Source of the DNA: Escherichia phage vB_EcoD_Opt212
Sequence record: NC_073055.1
Strand: one strand, 5' to 3'
Length of the DNA stretch: 44,488 nt
Below are positions 4,301 to 41,183 of this stretch, in pieces. A program made the position numbers and the translations under genes. The notes beneath the pieces were generated by a model. The model worked only from the letters and a program-made list of their open reading frames with translations. It ran no database searches and had not been told where the DNA came from. Numbering within the stretch: the stretch's first letter is position 1; each line of letters starts with the position of its first letter.

Positions 4301-4532
4301 GTTTTACCCCATTCAAAACAGCATTACGCAGTGTGCGCAATGCAAACAGCCAGATTAACGCGGTCCAGGTGGTGTCAGATACGTCTCCGGTTTGCAACAG
4401 TCCGATAATGCAGACCATCGCCGTAAGCAGATATAACACCCGACCGAAGAAGCCATCCTGGACGGACGGCGCATACACGTTAAACAGGGACGAAGCCCCT
4501 ATGATAACAAACAACAGGACGGAGATAATCAT
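4287..4532 (-). CDS. holin/antiholin-like membrane protein
   Basis: 81 aa, two hydrophobic segments, overlaps endolysin start. Confidence 0.5.
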   Translation of the reverse strand: MIISVLLFVIIGASSLFNVYAPSVQDGFFGRVLYLLTAMVCIIGLLQTGDVSDTTWTALIWLFALRTLRNAVLNGVKHAIQ

Positions 4533-4819
4533 TTTGCGCCACCCGGAAGTCGGAACGACTCAATAGTCTCCCTGATCCGGGCGGCTATTGGCATCCAGAA
4601 GATTGCAGTTACGAAGCCCAAACCGGCGACAGTGCGCTCGCCAGATAAGCCAGCCCACTCGGCGATAGCTGGCGCACCAAATATGGCACACAGGAAGCCA
4701 ACTACGACATATAAAACGAAGTTCAACGGCCCTTTCGTTGCCTCGCCATGAATGCGTGCGCCTACGAAGCCACCAGCAAGACACGCAAGGGCGAATAACC
4801 ACTCGTTTAGCTTATCCAT
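4529..4819 (-). CDS. holin-like membrane protein
   Basis: 96 aa, multiple predicted TM segments, ATGA overlap with next gene. Confidence 0.5.
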   Translation of the reverse strand: MDKLNEWLFALACLAGGFVGARIHGEATKGPLNFVLYVVVGFLCAIFGAPAIAEWAGLSGERTVAGLGFVTAIFWMPIAARIRETIESFRLPGGAK

Positions 4820-4871
4820 AAAAAAGTCCCAGTAAGTTTTAGCTCACTGGGACTATATCACGCTTGCATAA

Positions 4872-5159
4872 TTAATCGAAAATGGACCACTTGCCGACGC
4901 CTTTCCACTCCCACCCTTCCGATCGGACGGCCTCGAACATTCGCCTGCCGATCATATCGCGATACCATAGCCACCACATGCGCAACCGGGTAGGGTGCTC
5001 CGTGATGCCACGGCGCTTGTATATCTGAAACGTCATGCGGGTAATGCTGGCGGCTTCCACCGCGGGCCAAATCAGGAATACCCATACCAACAGCGCCAGC
5101 ACCGTAGCAAAGAGTGTCGCGCACCCAAAACCAAACCAATAAATCAAATCGTGTAGCAT
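4872..5159 (-). CDS. membrane protein (95 aa)
   Basis: hydrophobic TM segments; start moved to internal ATG with GGAAGGGG RBS; alternative-frame ORF 4858..5202 looks antisense-like. Confidence 0.4.
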   Translation of the reverse strand: MLHDLIYWFGFGCATLFATVLALLVWVFLIWPAVEAASITRMTFQIYKRRGITEHPTRLRMWWLWYRDMIGRRMFEAVRSEGWEWKGVGKWSIFD

Positions 5160-5264
5160 CGAATTGCCCCTTCCGGTTTGCCAATATGGCGCGCCCATGC
5201 ACGCGCCACGAAGTAATTGCGAAATACCCGACCGCCTATCTCAAAGAGGTTATGCATCAGCATA

Positions 5265-5435
5265 TCACGAATCACAGCCGACACGGGATACGACCTCCAG
5301 ATGTGGGTTATGGCGTGGCGCCCAGTGCGCTTGCTTAGTAGCCACATTACGTAGTTTAACCTGGTAATGGGTTACGGCGACCACCAAGTATAAATCGCGG
5401 GTTAATTTATCCCGCACTAAATCGAATTTATTCAT
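5265..5435 (-). CDS. small hypothetical protein (56 aa)
   Basis: ATG overlaps stop of upstream gene (ATGA coupling); not in ORF track; overlaps alternative track ORF 5144..5347 in another frame. Confidence 0.3.
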   Translation of the reverse strand: MNKFDLVRDKLTRDLYLVVAVTHYQVKLRNVATKQAHWAPRHNPHLEVVSRVGCDS

Positions 5436-5986
5436 TTCAGCACCACACGCAACGGGCTTACGGACTTCATGCTACCGTCGGGGTAGACCAGGAGCACGCC
5501 GATTCCGTGGCGTTTTGCGTCCAGATTAGCCATGCGCATTGCATCGCATTGCTGGGTAATGGCCTTCCGGGCGTTGTCGATATGCTCGCGCACCTTGCTC
5601 TCGTCGTATTTGGTATATGGGTGCTCCGTACGGGTGATCGCTTTCGCCACGACGCCAGGGCGCTTAGGTGTGTAGTTCCGGCCTACGCGGGTGTAATTCA
5701 CCAGGGTGGCGGGGTTAATAGTCGCGCCTGCCACCAGAGTGCTGTCGATAGTAATCCATTCCGTCCCGACTGACTTCACGACCCAGGTGTAGTCATTGCC
5801 ATCACAACGCAGCACATCACCTACTCGTACGTCGTGGTGCACTACCTGCAAATGCTCATGCAGGGTGGCTTTCTTGTACCAGAATACGCGGTCGCTGGCT
5901 TCATGGTACATGCGCACATAGTTCGGCAGCACTTCGATCGGGGTAAGGAATCGCCCATTATGCTTATTGCGGAATATCATTTTCAT
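5432..5986 (-). CDS. hypothetical protein
   Basis: 184 aa; strong AGGAGA RBS; coupled to flanking small genes. Confidence 0.6.
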   Translation of the reverse strand: MKMIFRNKHNGRFLTPIEVLPNYVRMYHEASDRVFWYKKATLHEHLQVVHHDVRVGDVLRCDGNDYTWVVKSVGTEWITIDSTLVAGATINPATLVNYTRVGRNYTPKRPGVVAKAITRTEHPYTKYDESKVREHIDNARKAITQQCDAMRMANLDAKRHGIGVLLVYPDGSMKSVSPLRVVLK

Positions 5987-6147
5987 TCTGTCAATCTCCT
6001 GTAGTTACGAACTAATGTGAGGCGCGAGATAGTGCGGCGAGTACCACACTTAGGGTGTGAAATAGTCACGTTGCCGTTTGCTTCTTCTGTCACGAAGTAA
6101 GTCAGTCGCGTGGCCTTACTCCGCCAGCGTTCAGGTTGCTTGTTCAT
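5983..6147 (-). CDS. small hypothetical protein (54 aa)
   Basis: ATGA overlaps at both ends; GGAG RBS; not in ORF track. Confidence 0.4.
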   Translation of the reverse strand: MNKQPERWRSKATRLTYFVTEEANGNVTISHPKCGTRRTISRLTLVRNYRRLTE

Positions 6148-6413
6148 TTCGCCAGTCTCCAGTGTTTGCCTACCCGCTCAACGGCAGGCTTTCGGCGTAA
6201 TGTAATACGAATCCCCATTGGTTGCAAGGAAGTCCGCACCCTGAAATCGTGTTGTGCTGCGAACTGGTGCAAGTAGCGAGTCTGCGTCAGTGGCTTTACG
6301 TCATCGCGATAGCACCAGTACACAGAATCCCCCACATTCGCATTCTTAGCCCATATTCGTATGCAATGCAGGGGAATATGCCACGAAAGCTGTTTTGCTC
6401 GCCTACGGCCCAT
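6144..6413 (-). CDS. hypothetical protein
   Basis: 89 aa, AAGGGG RBS, translationally coupled. Confidence 0.45.
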   Translation of the reverse strand: MGRRRAKQLSWHIPLHCIRIWAKNANVGDSVYWCYRDDVKPLTQTRYLHQFAAQHDFRVRTSLQPMGIRITLRRKPAVERVGKHWRLAK

Positions 6414-6422
6414 TTTGGCCCC

Positions 6423-6728
6423 TTATTTCGCAAGCTGGGTGAATAGCTCACGCTGGGCTTTAATCCGGGCGACGTTTGTCACTGCCTTATCGCCAATACC
6501 GAAGCGATATGCCAGGCGCTCGCGGGAGAATGCACGCGCGTATTCGTGGATTGCCTTCGCCAGCGTCTTCAGTTCGTCAAGGCTGGCATCCATGCCGTCG
6601 AGCGCATACATGATTGCCTGCTGGGCCAGTATTACTACATGCGCCGCGCGGTCTGCGTTGCCGTTCAGAGCCTTCGCTTCGTCCAGCTTCGCCAGGGCCA
6701 TTGCGTAATTCCAGATTAATGCTCTCAT
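6423..6728 (-). CDS. hypothetical protein
   Basis: 101 aa, GAGGAC RBS, first gene after long intergenic region. Confidence 0.55.
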   Translation of the reverse strand: MRALIWNYAMALAKLDEAKALNGNADRAAHVVILAQQAIMYALDGMDASLDELKTLAKAIHEYARAFSRERLAYRFGIGDKAVTNVARIKAQRELFTQLAK

Positions 6729-6909
6729 CGTTCAGTCCTCATGTTGGTGTGCAACCAATATTAATCACGCGCATGAAAAAGTTGATCGCTATCTGCTGCA
6801 ACGGCAAACTGCATTTCCCACTCTCCATTATCCAACCCGCATTGGTTGCCTAGTTCATCCGCGACCGCACTTCGCATCATGCTGCCGTGTATTTTGCAAT
6901 CCCCGGATT

Positions 6910-7083
6910 TTATTCAGTCTCAGACGAGGGGGGCCATTGACCCCCGTCTAGTCTGAAAGACTGGGGTGCTGTCCCGCTGTCCCGCTCCTCTGGAAGCCGC
7001 GCCATCCGGGGCGGGACGGGGGTGCTGTCCCGCTTTGTCCCGCCCGCTTTTTGTCCCGCTTTTTGTCCCGCTTACTTTATGCA
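6910..7083. repeat. GTCCCGC-iteron element, copy A
   Basis: 75-bp block identical to 34727..34801, then 6 direct and 1 inverted (T)GTCCCGC copies; overall similar to 34727..34899. Confidence 0.8.
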
Positions 7084-7157
7084 GTTTTATTGCATAACTA
7101 TTCATAATAATCACACTACACGGCAACCAATACGACCAGTTAAAAACACCCAAAATG

Positions 7158-7240
7158 GCAACCAATGCGCGCAAAATTTAATCTTTTAGCGATATGGGAA
7201 TTCCCATATCGGCAACCAATACGCGCAAAATTTAATCTTT
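7158..7240. promoter_or_regulatory. 22-bp perfect palindrome CGATATGGGAATTCCCATATCG (7190..7211) flanked by two ~29-bp direct repeats
   Basis: direct reading; repeats GGCAACCAAT(G/A)CGCGCAAAATTTAATCTTT; second copy overlaps primase stop. Confidence 0.7.
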
Positions 7241-9496
7241 CAGGTCGTCATCGGTCGCAGAAAGCGTGATGGGTATATTCGTTTTGATGACTATATTCGA
7301 CGACCCATAGATGGCCCCGGTGTGCGGATCGGTATAAAAACCTAACACTCCGCGCTCAACCATATCGTCTATTGCCTTCGTAGATGTGCCACCTTTTGCC
7401 AATCCCGCCTGGCGGACAATTGCCGATTTGCTGAATCCGGTATGGTCCGGGTTATCTTCCATCAGTTTTTCCAGTGCCGCATAAAGCACTTTCTCTTTTT
7501 CGTTGCGCGGTCCTGCGGCATTCTCGTCCTTAACCGCGGCCTTGCCAGCCGCCTTCGCCTGTTCTATAGCGAACGGTGCCAGGGCGACCGGTACGAGGTA
7601 GAGAGTCTCGTCGCGTGGCGTGGAGGCAATCGGCTTGACGTCCCATCCGGCAACCACGTCGCCGAAGTCTGGCCCGGTGCTGGTGGACTGGTGCGCCTCG
7701 AACGCTTCTGACTTGCGGAGATCCACCTTCACCTTGCACTTGAGCAGGACGAAGCCACGCGGCGCTTGCTTGATGCCGTTACGTGCCTTTTCGTGATACA
7801 GGTTCAATTGGCCTGGCTGGTTGTCGTCCGGCTGTTCCAGGAAGAACGCAGAATCGACAGCGCCATGCAGCGCGCCGGACCCGCGGGGGGTTCTGCTGCC
7901 GTTTGCACCCTTCGCCGGGTGGTGGATGACGCCCGCACTGCCACCTGTATTTTCCGCGATGGCCTTCAGCGCTTTGACCACTTCACCCATATCGCTGGCG
8001 TTGTTCTCGTCGAACGGTTTAGCATCCGCGGACCGCAACGCAACAGTCTGGTTGAGTGAGTCGAACGCCACCAGGCCAACCGGTTCGCCGTTAGCGGTGC
8101 GGTTGATGAAGCTGATAACTTCACGCAAGCCGGATTTGCTGGTGATATCCCAGCCGCGTGATTGCAGATCGATAATGTGCAGCTTGTCCAGGTCGTGCTC
8201 ATATTTAATCTGCAATGCTTCTTTGCGCTGGTTAGAGGCTTCGCCACCTTCCGCGTCGAAATAGAAGCAATGAGACTGGACGACCTTCGCACCGCCGAAC
8301 GGAATACCAGCGGCAACCGCGCCCATCTGCCCCAGCACGTAGAACGATTTACCGATGTTCGACTCACCCGCCATATACCAGGTTGATTTAAAGTTAATCA
8401 ACCCCTCGATAATCGGGTCGTGCTTACTGAACAGCGCAACCGGCTCGTTATCCAGATCCGCATCGGTGCACACGCCGTATTCTTCGCCGTCGCCAACCGC
8501 ATCCACAATATGTTCATATAAGGATTCGACTTCCTCGTCGTCCAGCCCTGGGAGGATGGCGGCGATTTGCTTACGGGACATGTTGTGCGGCTCGACGTTC
8601 AGGTGGTCCGGTATCCCGATGAGACGTAGCGCCAGGTGCTGGTGTCTGTTCAGTTCCGAGCAACACTCGTTGCCGGTGTGCATACACTTGAAACGGATCT
8701 CGCCATCCTTAACCATGATAGCGGTGGACCCTTCACCACTGTGCAGGTGTTCGTTCGGGCATGGCACTTCATAACCACGACCGGACGACAGCGGTTCGAA
8801 TCCTGCCTGGAAGCACCAGTCCAGAATGCCGTCTGCCACTGCGTCGTCGCCCTGGGTAAGCTCGCGGCGTACTTCCTCTTTTTCCACCCCCAGCTTATCA
8901 GCCAGGCGAAGCAGACGACGGACGCGGGCACGTTTGCCGTAGTGACACTTAACAACCGATTGCTGGTGAGGCAGGTACATAAGGCGGTTTGTGTCTTTCG
9001 TGCAATCGTCGAAGTCCACATCTGACAGGCCCAGTTGGTGTAATAGTGCATACTGGACGCGGCCCAGGTCTTCCGCCGGTACAGGCTTGTCAGTGAGCAC
9101 CAGGAAACGAGCGCAACGCGTGCCGCCTTTCAGCGGGTGGCGGTCGCCGGTAGTGGTGTGGAAGACGTGCTCCAGTCCCGCGTCGATGAACGCCTTACGG
9201 CAGCGGCGCAGGGTGCGGGTGTCGGTGCGGTCAATATCAAAGAACAGGATCGAGCGGTCCACGGCACTGGTCTTGCGGCGTAAGCCGTCACGGGTATAAG
9301 CCACAATACCATCAGCCTTACGCTTGCGGCGCGCATACTCCGCTTTATCTTCCGTCTTGTTGATATGCACCGAGGATATTTCTTTCGCATCATTAATAAA
9401 TTCGAAAAACTCATCGGTGGTCATCTGGAAGTTTTCCGCCCTGGCTTTTTCGCCTTTTTTAGCGGGTCGTGTTACAGCGAATTTAATTAAGCTCAT
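7232..9496 (-). CDS. DNA primase/helicase (primase-polymerase-like N-terminus, P-loop NTPase, C-terminal wHTH)
   Basis: 754 aa; Walker A-like GESNIGKSF; Cys/His cluster; acidic FFDIDRTD segment. Confidence 0.75.
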   Translation of the reverse strand: MSLIKFAVTRPAKKGEKARAENFQMTTDEFFEFINDAKEISSVHINKTEDKAEYARRKRKADGIVAYTRDGLRRKTSAVDRSILFFDIDRTDTRTLRRCRKAFIDAGLEHVFHTTTGDRHPLKGGTRCARFLVLTDKPVPAEDLGRVQYALLHQLGLSDVDFDDCTKDTNRLMYLPHQQSVVKCHYGKRARVRRLLRLADKLGVEKEEVRRELTQGDDAVADGILDWCFQAGFEPLSSGRGYEVPCPNEHLHSGEGSTAIMVKDGEIRFKCMHTGNECCSELNRHQHLALRLIGIPDHLNVEPHNMSRKQIAAILPGLDDEEVESLYEHIVDAVGDGEEYGVCTDADLDNEPVALFSKHDPIIEGLINFKSTWYMAGESNIGKSFYVLGQMGAVAAGIPFGGAKVVQSHCFYFDAEGGEASNQRKEALQIKYEHDLDKLHIIDLQSRGWDITSKSGLREVISFINRTANGEPVGLVAFDSLNQTVALRSADAKPFDENNASDMGEVVKALKAIAENTGGSAGVIHHPAKGANGSRTPRGSGALHGAVDSAFFLEQPDDNQPGQLNLYHEKARNGIKQAPRGFVLLKCKVKVDLRKSEAFEAHQSTSTGPDFGDVVAGWDVKPIASTPRDETLYLVPVALAPFAIEQAKAAGKAAVKDENAAGPRNEKEKVLYAALEKLMEDNPDHTGFSKSAIVRQAGLAKGGTSTKAIDDMVERGVLGFYTDPHTGAIYGSSNIVIKTNIPITLSATDDDLKD

Positions 9497-9506
9497 TGCC
9501 GTGGCC

Positions 9507-9836
9507 TTACTTAGAAGTTTTATTATTGCGTACCCAGGAGCGCACTGTGCTCTGATTAATTCCGGTTAGCTCTGCAATCATCGCCCATGATTTGCCCTCG
9601 GCGCGCAAACGGATAACCTGTTTTTTGTATTCTTCCATTTCTTCATTGTGTTTTTGCAGCTTGCTTGCTGCCGTGCCGTTGAGCAATTCCAGCTTCGCGG
9701 TAAGCTCCTTCTCAGCACGCGATAATCTGGACACTTCAAATAACAGAGTATCCACCGCATTTGTGTAATACCAGGATTTACCCGCTTCGCCGCGGATTGC
9801 ATTAGATAACACTTCAATTGCTTCTTTGATATTCAT
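9507..9836 (-). CDS. small HTH DNA-binding protein (putative regulator)
   Basis: 109 aa; C-terminal HTH (GKSWAMIAELTGINQSTVRSWV); first gene of leftward operon. Confidence 0.6.
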   Translation of the reverse strand: MNIKEAIEVLSNAIRGEAGKSWYYTNAVDTLLFEVSRLSRAEKELTAKLELLNGTAASKLQKHNEEMEEYKKQVIRLRAEGKSWAMIAELTGINQSTVRSWVRNNKTSK

Positions 9837-19184: not shown

Positions 19185-19213
19185 TTGCATAATCATATTG
19201 GTTGCATTATCTT
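19185..19213 (+). promoter_or_regulatory. candidate promoter (TTGCAT-N17-TATCTT) within tandem ATTGGTTGCAT motifs
   Basis: hexamers read directly; immediately precedes a terminator hairpin, so assignment is uncertain. Confidence 0.3.
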
Positions 19214-19246
19214 AAGGGTGTTCCGAAGGGAACGCCCTTTTTTTTA
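19214..19246 (+). terminator. rho-independent terminator
   Basis: GGGTGTTCC/GGAACGCCC stem followed by T8. Confidence 0.65.
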
Positions 19247-19262
19247 ATATGAGGATTTGACG

Positions 19263-19505
19263 ATGAAACGATTCTTTTTAGATTACGACGGTGATTTGCG
19301 GTTATGGGTGTGCATGGTGCTGTTCTTATTCTTTTGTCTCCTGCTGCCGATTTCCTGCACGTATAACCTCGATAAATATGAATGCCGTATTGTCTACGCA
19401 GAACTAACAGGTCGTAACACCCAGTGGCGCTATGGCACTTGCTGGGTTGAAATGGATGGCAAATTTATACCACGCAAAGAAATTCGCATGACGGAGATTA
19501 AATAA
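19263..19505 (+). CDS. small membrane protein
   Basis: 80 aa; hydrophobic segment WVCMVLFLFFCLLLPI; GAGGA RBS. Confidence 0.5.
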   Translation: MKRFFLDYDGDLRLWVCMVLFLFFCLLLPISCTYNLDKYECRIVYAELTGRNTQWRYGTCWVEMDGKFIPRKEIRMTEIK

Positions 19506-19963
19506 TGAAAATTTTACAAGAAGAGAAAGCGTATTGGGTAGCACAGTGTCTTGAAGCCCGCGAGAAAGCGGAAGGAGCTACCGCGCTGGCAAATACCTAC
19601 CTGGCTAGCTATGAAGAAGAAGAGAAGGTCCGAAAGGAATTAGAGGAACGCTTCGAACTGCTGGGCGAACTGATTACCATTATGCAGCGCACCGGATACA
19701 CAACATCCGTATCGCTCACCCGGCTAACTGCCGATGGTCTGCGTGAGCATTGCAAACGTGCAGAAGAATACGTCCGACCGAAAGGACGCACAACGAAGAT
19801 CGACCGTAAAGACTTGGTGCTTATCGCGTGGCGAGCAAACGGCAGCTACTATTCCGATAGCCGACCGCTCAGTAGGGCGGAGCTATCCCGAGTCCAACGC
19901 GTGCTATCCAGTGGCAAGAAAACCGCCCTGTATGCGATAGATCCCGACTATGACGGAGAATGA
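19505..19963 (+). CDS. hypothetical protein
   Basis: 152 aa, coupled to flanking genes. Confidence 0.55.
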   Translation: MKILQEEKAYWVAQCLEAREKAEGATALANTYLASYEEEEKVRKELEERFELLGELITIMQRTGYTTSVSLTRLTADGLREHCKRAEEYVRPKGRTTKIDRKDLVLIAWRANGSYYSDSRPLSRAELSRVQRVLSSGKKTALYAIDPDYDGE

Positions 19964-20435
19964 GCAAAAAGATAGCTGGCGCACGCCGCCAGCTTTATTT
20001 AAACCGCTTCGTCGGAAATACCGATTCCGTTACGATATGGCGGCAAGCGACGCCAATCATCTGCTACCGCGTTACTTCACGGCGGAACACAGCGCGCTTG
20101 ATGTGGACTGGTCCGAGTTGAAAGGGTGGAAGTGGTGCAATCCGCCGTATTCCGATCCGCTGCCGTGGGTAGAGTGCGCAGCGCACGGACGCCGGACGGT
20201 CATGCTACTGAATCAGGACACGTCGACGAAGTGGGCGAAGCTGGCCAGGAAGACTGCAAACCTGATAATTCTTCTGGACTGGCGGATTAGATTCATTCAC
20301 GCCGTCACCGGCGAGGTCGGGCCGAGCAATAACAAGTGCCAGCAATTGATAATCTTTGACGAAGCGCTACCGACCGGCAGCGCAAAAATTGAAATAATGA
20401 GCGAAGGAGAACTCCTTGAATATCTTAATCGTTGA
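19950..20435 (+). CDS. DNA N6-adenine methyltransferase (phage Dam-type)
   Basis: 161 aa; WCNPPYSD catalytic motif; pattern typical of small phage Dam-like MTases. Confidence 0.8.
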   Translation: MTENEQKDSWRTPPALFKPLRRKYRFRYDMAASDANHLLPRYFTAEHSALDVDWSELKGWKWCNPPYSDPLPWVECAAHGRRTVMLLNQDTSTKWAKLARKTANLIILLDWRIRFIHAVTGEVGPSNNKCQQLIIFDEALPTGSAKIEIMSEGELLEYLNR

Positions 20436-20640
20436 CCGCAGCCTCGCGGTCGTAGACCAAATGCAAAAAGACTTCTGCATCGATCCACGCCGCGATCGTG
20501 TGCATCGCGTGTTGCGGCCTGAACACCTCCTGGGCATGGACCTTACCGGCTGGCTTGTCATAACCCGACGTTGCCATTTCGTGTGTAACTCCTTCACCGC
20601 GCGCAGCGCCCGACAGACCCTTATTGAGAGCTTAAAATGA
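20416..20640 (+). CDS. hypothetical protein (TTG start)
   Basis: 74 aa; GAAGGAGA RBS 6 nt upstream of TTG; overlaps Dam end and next gene start. Confidence 0.35.
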   Translation: MNILIVDRSLAVVDQMQKDFCIDPRRDRVHRVLRPEHLLGMDLTGWLVITRRCHFVCNSFTARSARQTLIESLK

Positions 20641-34726: not shown

Positions 34727-34899
34727 TTATTCAGTCTCAGACGAGGGGGGCCATTGACCCCCGTCTAGTCTGAAAGACTGGGGTGCTGTCCCGCTGTCCC
34801 GATCGGCTGAAAACCGCGGCAGCACTGGCGGGGACGGGGTGCTGTCCCGTTTTGTCCCGCCCCTTGTTTGTCCCGCTTTCTGTCCCGCTTACTTTATGC
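34727..34899. repeat. GTCCCGC-iteron element, copy B
   Basis: first 75 bp identical to 6910..6984; similar iteron array. Confidence 0.8.
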
Positions 34900-34924
34900 A
34901 ATAAAACTGCATAGGTATGCACAT

Positions 34925-35043
34925 TTACAGGGCGTGACAAAACGGGACGTCCCGCCTGTCCCGCTTTGAGTTTATGCAATGAAAGTGATTAGATATGCGG
35001 TTTTACAGAGGCGGGACAAAACGGGACGTCCCGCCTGTCCCGC
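34925..35043. repeat. two tandem ~78-bp units each with 12-bp palindrome CGGGACGTCCCG
   Basis: palindromes at about 34943..34954 and 35022..35033 with flanking GTCCCGC/GCGGGAC. Confidence 0.75.
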
Positions 35044-40667: not shown

Positions 40668-41183
40668 ATGAGACTGACAAAAGACATTAAAAACCAGATT
40701 CTGGCTAACATCCTGCGCGACCACGAAATCGCGACCGAAGCCAAATCAATCATGATGGACTCTCGAAATCTGGCGTACGCCATTACGATGGACTGTATGC
40801 CGGAAGGCATTCATTCGTTCGCCGAGCTACGTGAGCGCATTGCAGCAATCGGCGGTGACCCGTCGCAGATGTACGGCGTCTGTGTGTACACCAACAAGGC
40901 GACGTATAGACATGACGCCGACAGCCCATATGGTGTAGGCAGCGTTTACGACGCCACTTTCGAAATCAACGCAGGCGGAAACGTCCGTACCGTGTCATTG
41001 AGCGGAGACGGACACCGAGTCCGAGTATATCGCGGATACGGGGAGTATAAATACATGAATAAACTGTCTCCCGATCTCGGCGATATTGTGCCTGGGTATG
41101 AGGAAATTTTGTTAGCGTCAGTGTGCGAAGTCGATGACGACGGGAAAGCGCTGCCGATATATATATGCCACGCGGTCGTATAG
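40668..41183 (+). CDS. hypothetical protein (opposite-strand island gene 1)
   Basis: 171 aa; GAGGAC RBS; no recognisable motifs. Confidence 0.55.
   Translation: MRLTKDIKNQILANILRDHEIATEAKSIMMDSRNLAYAITMDCMPEGIHSFAELRERIAAIGGDPSQMYGVCVYTNKATYRHDADSPYGVGSVYDATFEINAGGNVRTVSLSGDGHRVRVYRGYGEYKYMNKLSPDLGDIVPGYEEILLASVCEVDDDGKALPIYICHAVV

Follow-up and report, generated by a model that had tools for sequence, protein, structure and literature searches.

Escherichia phage vB_EcoD_Opt212 (NC_073055.1) was analysed here as one window of 44,488 nucleotides (nt), which is a complete genome of the genus Dhillonvirus, a group of E. coli siphophages. On its minus strand, seven small open reading frames (ORFs), designated g1 to g7, cover positions 4872-6728 and leave only 9 non-coding bases in 1857. 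The original prediction, made from the letters of this DNA alone, had described the region as a chain of six or seven small, translationally coupled genes situated between the lysis cassette and an iteron region. This chain was recovered as seven ORFs joined by ATGA or longer overlaps and by one 9-nt gap, and its placement is borne out by the gene order of the genome. In public records, the region is annotated as a series of hypothetical proteins.

In transcriptional direction, the first gene, g1 (6423-6728, minus strand like all the others; 101 amino acids (aa); PHROG 9839), is preceded by the ribosome-binding site GAGGA, and a 9-nt spacer containing the ribosome-binding site AAGGGG leads over to g2 (6144-6413; 89 aa; PHROG 12533). 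ATGA overlaps connect g2 with g3 (5983-6147; 54 aa; ribosome-binding site GGAGA; no PHROG), g3 with g4 (5432-5986; 184 aa; PHROG 10243, while its C-terminal module also matches PHROG 27442) and g4 with g5 (5265-5435; 56 aa; no PHROG). Longer overlaps of 20 nt and 16 nt are present at the g5/g6 and g6/g7 junctions, respectively, with g6 located at 5144-5284 (46 aa; GTG start; PHROG 13628) and g7 at 4872-5159 (95 aa; ATG at 5159; ribosome-binding site GAAGGGG; PHROG 2531). A well-placed ribosome-binding site was assigned to six of the seven starts.

For g6, an ORF of 39 aa had originally been proposed, and TAA-N1-ATG junctions had been reported along with those of the ATGA type. The latter stand at three junctions, but the former was tied to the 39-aa model, which is better read as a gene of 46 aa. 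Its start is most likely the GTG at 5284, seven codons upstream of the 39-aa ORF start, because GGAGG is found 10 nt upstream of this codon, because the g6 orthologue of phages without g5 begins at the same residue with an ATG in ATGA overlap with g4, and because the match to PHROG 13628 spans all 46 residues. In case of g7, the ATG at 5159 (95 aa) is the most likely start rather than that of the longest ORF (108 aa). Public annotations often omit g5 or g6, choose other starts or call the promoter region upstream of g1 a coding sequence (CDS).

All seven ORFs are coding, with g3 being the weakest case. Ratios of nonsynonymous to synonymous substitution rates (dN/dS) were calculated according to Nei-Gojobori in the annotated and the two shifted frames using orthologues in up to 19 related loci. 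In addition, all six frames were ranked by a codon-usage log-likelihood, for which the long genes of the window served as training set. In the annotated frame, dN/dS amounted to 0.18-0.7 for g1, 0.08-0.32 for g2, 0.2-0.7 for g4, 0.11-0.15 for g5 (three orthologues), 0.02-0.49 for g6 and 0.05-0.58 for g7, while shifted frames mostly gave values of ~1-5, except in g6 and in a few comparisons of g1, where one shifted frame was at 0.3-0.9. In g3, too few changes separate the close orthologue, and dS is saturated in the distant relatives (50-54% protein identity), in which dN lies below the shifted-frame values. Codon scores lie clearly above zero for g1 (+0.64), g4, g6 and g7 and slightly above it for g5, with those of g2 and g3 being close to zero.

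These near-zero scores might be taken to mean that the small ORFs are for the most part fortuitous open frames rather than genes, the more so as open frames of 46-56 codons easily arise by chance and a small ORF annotated upstream of g1 in many GenBank records does look non-coding. Such an explanation is nevertheless extremely improbable and has largely been overturned by the comparative data already: dN/dS spans 0.02-0.7 in the annotated frames against ~1-5 in most shifted-frame comparisons, ribosome-binding sites are properly spaced, and protein homologues persist down to 31-54% identity. Codon usage, by which the original prediction had expected that non-coding ORFs might reveal themselves, puts the annotated frame of each of the seven genes ahead of the five other frames and so does not refute the chain.

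Backbone and variable slots across Dhillonvirus

A megablast search of region 4400-7300 against phage records returned 156 matches, almost all of them to Escherichia phages of the genus Dhillonvirus, with JLBYU37 as best match (93.9% identity over 93% of the query). Over its full length, the window also agrees in gene order with complete Dhillonvirus genomes such as SM_S22. On the minus strand, a gene for a 109-aa helix-turn-helix protein and the primase-helicase gene (7232-9496) are followed by ~500 nt of non-coding repeats, g1-g7, a terminator and two holin genes, and past the holins by endolysin, phosphoesterase and terminase genes, with portal, head and tail genes resuming from the opposite end of the window. 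The seven genes thus have the replication genes on one side and the late lysis/packaging operon on the other, all on the minus strand. Dhillonvirus orthologues (e.g. JLBYU37 gp50-gp54, Envy gp51-gp56 and Bas84_0055-0061) display the same genes, order and neighbours, and all of them are annotated as hypothetical. The g1 and g4 proteins are 100% and 92% identical to their JLBYU37 orthologues, respectively, and for g3 and g5 the identity to the JLBYU60 counterparts is 100%. Unlike sequenced Dhillonviruses, the genome studied here combines g3 and g5 in one cassette and carries a 31-nt deletion in the promoter upstream.

For comparison across the genus, the stretch from primase stop to holin start was extracted from 20 genomes, i.e. 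the window and 19 related loci. Five genes, g1, g2, g4, g6 and g7, are present in all 20 in constant order and form a backbone, while variable small genes occupy four slots. Three genomes have a 59-aa gene in the slot before g1. Between g2 and g4, g3-type genes are found in four genomes and an unrelated 44-50-aa gene in most others, next to further inserts or a duplicated g4. The g4-g6 slot contains g5 in 4/20 genomes, and the g6-g7 slot a 33-aa ORF in seven. Across GenBank, g3-type genes occur in 23 phage records (seven at 100% identity, the rest at 50-64%) and g5 in only 10. Both are naturally absent in most relatives, while backbone genes are never absent.

The backbone genes also differ in their conservation. 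With identities of 72-96% and 87-98% among relatives, respectively, g2 and g6 are among the most conserved genes of the block, while identity drops to 54% for g1 and is only 31-40% for g4 in most genomes. According to its alignment, g4 is built from alternative versions of its N-terminal part, middle barrel, linker and C-terminal module in differing combinations, and its two halves are also found as separate small proteins. In the locus L016 (IMGVR_UViG_3300045988_011231), two tandem g4-family genes of 114 aa and 180 aa are present in the cassette at 1134-2017, a sign of ongoing duplication and recombination at g4.

Variability of this kind raises the question of host defence. The original prediction was right in its descriptive part, the small coupled genes and their location, yet the host-takeover or anti-defence role it attached to them is unsupported, with no match to the anti-Tmn protein having been found. 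An anti-defence role for the block is possible. In its full form, it would make the block an anti-defence island in which some or all small proteins, above all g1 and g4, which are mosaic and evolve rapidly, and the patchily distributed g3 and g5, bind and inhibit host immune proteins and in which their diversification reflects an arms race, which appears rather doubtful. The divergence of g4 next to far better conserved neighbours (72-98% for g2 and g6), the shuffling of modules within g4, the hypervariable middle segment of g1 and the patchy occurrence of g3 and g5 would all suit such an island, as would the small size of the genes and their position upstream of late genes. However, the five backbone genes occur in 20/20 genomes, unlike typical anti-defence genes, and g2, g6 and g7 are conserved as well as always present, and hence neither patchy nor fast-diversifying. 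Moreover, all seven products are basic (isoelectric point (pI) 9.6-11.4), unlike acidic DNA-mimic inhibitors, and none of them shows similarity to anti-Tmn, the sole anti-defence protein compared, or matches a functional family.

The gene for anti-Tmn, ORF35 of SM_S22, is the only anti-defence gene shown experimentally in Dhillonvirus, and its product is small, essentially restricted to this genus and active in an allele-specific manner (PMC11846954). In the deposited SM_S22 genome, ORF35 corresponds to CDS0035, which is located between a Dam-like methyltransferase and an HNH endonuclease gene, and SM_A8 keeps only a 36-residue remnant, consistent with the same report (PMC11846954). The homologue in the window is encoded at 19505-19963 on the plus strand (74% identity to SM_S22 CDS0035), elsewhere in the genome than the block. 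While anti-Tmn is absent or degraded in some Dhillonviruses, the backbone of g1-g7 is always present. Ksap1, the trigger of KpAvs2 (PMC11564622), likewise has its candidate outside the block: a 74-aa ORF with TTG start at 20416-20640 (plus strand), between a methyltransferase gene and a gene in phosphatase/kinase position, judged by position and length only (PMC11564622). Other defence triggers or escape genes reported for Dhillonviruses are those for portal (the RAZR trigger), SSB, DNA polymerase and nmad5. None of the trigger, escape or inhibitor genes reported for the genus maps to the g1-g7 block.

Terminator, promoter and repeated motifs

Downstream, the block ends at an intrinsic terminator (4820-4854, minus strand), which was found by a terminator scan and consists of a 12-bp stem followed by a six-U run, with a folding energy of -24.1 kcal/mol (z-score -4.7). 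It is present in 20/20 genomes, and the divergent locus L017 carries a matching change in both arms, resulting in an extra C-G pair. The holin ATG (4819) comes immediately after the U-run. A weak ribosome-binding site of the holin gene (GGGA) lies inside the 3' arm of the hairpin, and an extended -10-like element, TGATATAGT, present as a single copy in the window (4852-4860, minus strand), overlaps the 5' arm. Since transcripts starting at TGATATAGT would be without the hairpin, a late promoter may be nested in the terminator.

Upstream, g1 is preceded by a leader and a promoter remnant (6729-6860, minus strand) with copies of the 9-mer ATTGGTTGC at 6751-6759 and 6841-6849. In 18 of the 19 relatives, the 20-genome alignment reveals a promoter of the form TTGCA[TC]-17-TA[TG]ATT 27 nt before the g1 leader, in which the hexamers and the 17-nt spacing are conserved, the spacer sequence is variable, and each hexamer falls within a ATTGGTTGC copy. 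Promoter scores of 9.4-11.9 in these 18 relatives compare with 6.9 in the present genome, where 31 nt between the two motif copies, and between two direct ATATTGGTTGCA repeats, are deleted (junction ~6750-6764), and with them the -35 element and the spacer. A search of IMG/VR did not find this junction, and among the matches listed, 12/12 best-matching GenBank records carry ~30 more bases at this point and align in two pieces. The deletion may have arisen in nature, through adaptation in the laboratory, or from an error in the assembly. An ORF upstream of g1, which persists here as a remnant at 6739-6828 (minus strand) and is annotated as a CDS of 37-54 aa in GenBank relatives, was rejected as coding, as frame-specific purifying selection is lacking (pN/pS of 0.76 in frame, with 0.54 and 0.60 for the two shifts). 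Since this ORF falls on the promoter and ATTGGTTGC motif region, it is probably not a gene.

The motif ATTGGTTGC occurs in 14 copies in the window versus 0.48 expected, at positions 6217, 6751, 6841, 7123, 7158, 7212, 10031, 16739, 19180, 19197, 21097, 24518, 40622 and 40636. Several copies overlap sigma-70-like promoters (10017+, 21095+, 40609+), and tandem copies together with the same leader (ACACCAACA..GAGGAC) are found upstream of g1 and likewise of a plus-strand gene whose start is near 40672. The motif looks like an operator or a promoter-class motif for a phage regulator. In the stretch 19195-19260 (plus strand), two copies adjoin ATCTTAAGGG, and a terminator-like hairpin with a T run follows; ATCTTAAGGG is the predicted 5' cohesive end of Dhillonvirus EE09 (PMC10673088).

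A second repeat, the iteron-like octamer GCGGGACA, is present in 16 copies versus 1.9 expected and is concentrated in two clusters, with six copies beside the primase-helicase gene (6970-7071) and seven in a ~700-nt gap between the tape-measure and tail-chaperone genes (34787-35043). This arrangement recalls phage P4, which has two repeat clusters, ori and crr. The stretch separating the repeats from g1 harbours, at 6923-6965, a conserved, long and imperfect GC-rich hairpin (CAGTCT..AGACGGGGG / CCCCCCTCGTCT..AGACTG). Lacking a U-run on either strand, this hairpin does not readily qualify as a terminator, and it may form part of the origin. The 109-aa protein encoded upstream of the primase-helicase gene (9507-9836, minus strand) contains a helix-turn-helix domain above Pfam thresholds (HTH_23, Sigma70_r4_2) and is restricted to Dhillonvirus, with public labels varying between transposase, resolvase and 'Gam'. 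It is a candidate for binding the repeated motifs.

Protein features of the seven products

Searches of Pfam, NCBIfam, PADLOC and PHROGs at lax thresholds assigned no functional family to any of the seven proteins, and the PHROG families to which five of them belong are without assigned function. The earlier statement that none of the ORFs has a recognisable motif is thereby confirmed for Pfam, NCBIfam and PADLOC, and the sensitive homology search that had been recommended alongside it likewise gave no functional family. The g3, g5 and g6 proteins are too small for inference.

The g1 protein is predicted to be basic and is probably all-helical. In an alignment of 43 homologues, its last ~45 residues are invariant, while the middle is hypervariable. 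Sub-threshold matches to HTH_Tnp_4 were obtained for 27/43 homologues (best E 0.024) and to Cro for 6/43, while g1 itself has no Pfam match. An hhalign comparison aligns residues 72-85 of g1 with the helix-turn-helix motif of the 109-aa protein (9507-9836) at a negligible probability of <1%. The invariant C-terminal stretch may form a helix-turn-helix, which is to be regarded as a lead and not as a result. Sequence profile searches of the PDB with the g1 and g2 families returned nothing meaningful, leaving g1 without a relative of solved structure. The g2 protein is very basic (pI 11.4) and adopts a compact alpha/beta fold. Its assignment as an arm-type DNA-binding domain of the lambda integrase kind was rejected, as the profile match and the fold of three-stranded sheet plus helix expected of such a domain were not found together.

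The largest product, g4, belongs to a mosaic and fast-evolving family. Two small beta-barrels at its N-terminus (residues 1-105) are followed by a disordered linker and a module of a long helix and a beta-hairpin. The best structural matches are RNA-polymerase-binding Tudor-like domains, namely CarD, RapA, the C-terminal domains of PcrA/UvrD, and Mfd. In comparison with these Tudor-like proteins (the N-terminal domains of CarD and RapA, the Mfd RID, the C-terminal domain of PcrA/UvrD) and with KOW/SH3 barrels, however, scores are in the generic small-barrel range with 7-14% identity, the Pfam family CarD_TRCF_RID is not matched, and the additional helix and hairpin module is not seen in the Tudor-like proteins. 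Searches of large databases with g4, g2 and g1 identified only apparent Dhillonvirus-type phage relatives, and an exhaustive HMMER search with the g4 profile only 23 representatives.

These g4 matches and the weak helix-turn-helix signals of g1 could indicate that the block holds a late-transcription switch comparable to lambda Q or a late activator, with a protein such as g1 (through DNA binding) or g4 (through binding of RNA polymerase by its Tudor-like barrels) getting RNA polymerase past the terminator into the late operon. The lambda-like order of replication genes, packed small genes, terminator, lysis, terminase, and head and tail genes (PMC8022706) fits this proposal, as do the terminator abutting the holin start codon in all genomes and the ATTGGTTGC motif marking several promoters genome-wide. 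As it draws on synteny with lambda, weak fold matches of g4 and a weak helix-turn-helix signal of g1, such a switch is considered unlikely. Its more specific form, in which g1 and/or g4, the latter as an oligomer with barrels of the type binding the beta lobe of RNA polymerase, constitute a new Q-like transcription switch of a virulent siphophage acting on ATTGGTTGC promoters and the terminator, is quite a long shot. If true, it would control a late operon of ~26 kb and would have no sequence relation to known antiterminators.

The last gene, g7, encodes a predicted single-pass membrane protein with one N-terminal hydrophobic stretch (~residues 5-40) and a basic, Trp-rich C-terminal domain carrying the motif WP[AF]VEAxS[IL]TR. 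Its relatives extend beyond the genus, as tblastn yielded 462 phage records including ~300 Salmonella Jerseyvirus phages and an Erwinia Ackermannviridae phage. The Jerseyvirus membrane protein (e.g. wksl3 gp07, celemicas gp20) is of the same length, 34-40% identical (E ~1e-7), and shares both the single N-terminal membrane helix and the motif. While g7 lies upstream of the holin gene, the Jerseyvirus gene is located ~1.1-1.3 kb downstream of the endolysin gene, among NinH-family genes and beside the small terminase gene, and the Ackermannviridae homologue adjoins an exonuclease gene. A scan of bacterial genomes gave one locus only, on a short scaffold, and g7 therefore does not look like a prophage gene.

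Given that g7 is a small protein with a single membrane span, that 52 nt separate its gene from the first holin gene downstream, and that it co-occurs with this holin-holin-endolysin type in both Dhillonvirus and Jerseyvirus, it might functionally belong to the adjacent lysis cassette, e.g. as antiholin or lysis regulator, which would render the block partly a lysis module. This is very unlikely. The strong conserved terminator separates g7 from the holin gene, PHROG 2531 is outside the lysis category, and a membrane-spanning segment, though present, is not specific to lysis proteins. As the homologues in Jerseyvirus and the Ackermannviridae phage lie elsewhere, g7 is not tied to the holin, and the link to lysis was rejected on the basis of synteny in these other phages.

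A probable nin-like accessory block

With moderate confidence, we regard g1-g7 as a nin-like accessory small-gene block of Dhillonvirus. The nin region of lambdoid phages, which is flanked by the replication genes and the late operon, is characterized by exceptionally tight packing and numerous ATGA junctions (PMC8022706). Like nin (ren-ninA..ninH-Q in lambda, ninA..ninZ in P22), the Dhillonvirus block follows the replication genes and directly precedes the late lysis, packaging and structural operon, consists of a run of tightly packed small genes with ATGA overlaps, and is mosaic in content among relatives, with mostly unassigned functions. The NinH-family neighbours of the Jerseyvirus g7 relatives are a further point of contact. 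As no protein is homologous, the resemblance is one of position and layout only. In contrast to lambda, the phage is virulent and replicates by a primase-helicase rather than O/P, and the last elements of its block are a membrane-protein gene and a terminator instead of an antiterminator gene.

In the nin-like block proposed here, stop/start overlaps or near-contacts would let ribosomes pass from gene to gene. The gaps of the five-gene backbone are hot spots for inserting and swapping small genes, here g3 and g5, and the strong conserved terminator separates the block from the holin gene. Transcription would take place with, or just after, that of the replication genes. In relatives, it would start from the dedicated sigma-70-type promoter flanked by two ATTGGTTGC motifs. 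The products might be small basic proteins with regulator or adaptor roles in nucleic-acid or transcription processes and at the inner membrane, and may tentatively be taken as neither enzymes nor virion parts; g1 is possibly a helix-turn-helix protein, g4 possibly an oligomeric beta-barrel adaptor, and g7 may reside at the inner membrane. While the architecture of the block is well supported, its expression timing and the roles of its proteins are inferred.

Several points weigh against the nin-like interpretation, the inferential nature of this timing being one of them. In Pfam, NCBIfam and annotated PHROG searches, no homology to Nin proteins (NinB/Orf, NinG/Rap, NinH and others) or to Q was detected. 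The presence of the backbone in every genome could point to an essential rather than an accessory role. In the genome at hand, no promoter-like (sigma-70-like) site in the region outscores shuffled sequence. Because the promoter is deleted and no other site beats shuffled sequence, the block would here depend on read-through from upstream, or be poorly transcribed. Proteomics of a Dhillonvirus infection identified only four phage proteins in infected cells, none of them named from the block (PMC10673088), which at so low a number is uninformative.

The block is an ordinary feature of phage genomes and not a new system; it already resides in >150 public genomes as a set of hypothetical genes. 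The present work provides corrected models for the seven genes, including the GTG start of g6 and the g5 gene left unannotated in several public records. Furthermore, the block was shown not to be the site of the known anti-defence gene of the genus. For Dhillonviruses, which are among the most often isolated coliphages and serve in studies of defence systems and in work on phage therapy, the analysis separates a five-gene backbone from swappable inserts and proposes the limits of the transcription unit.

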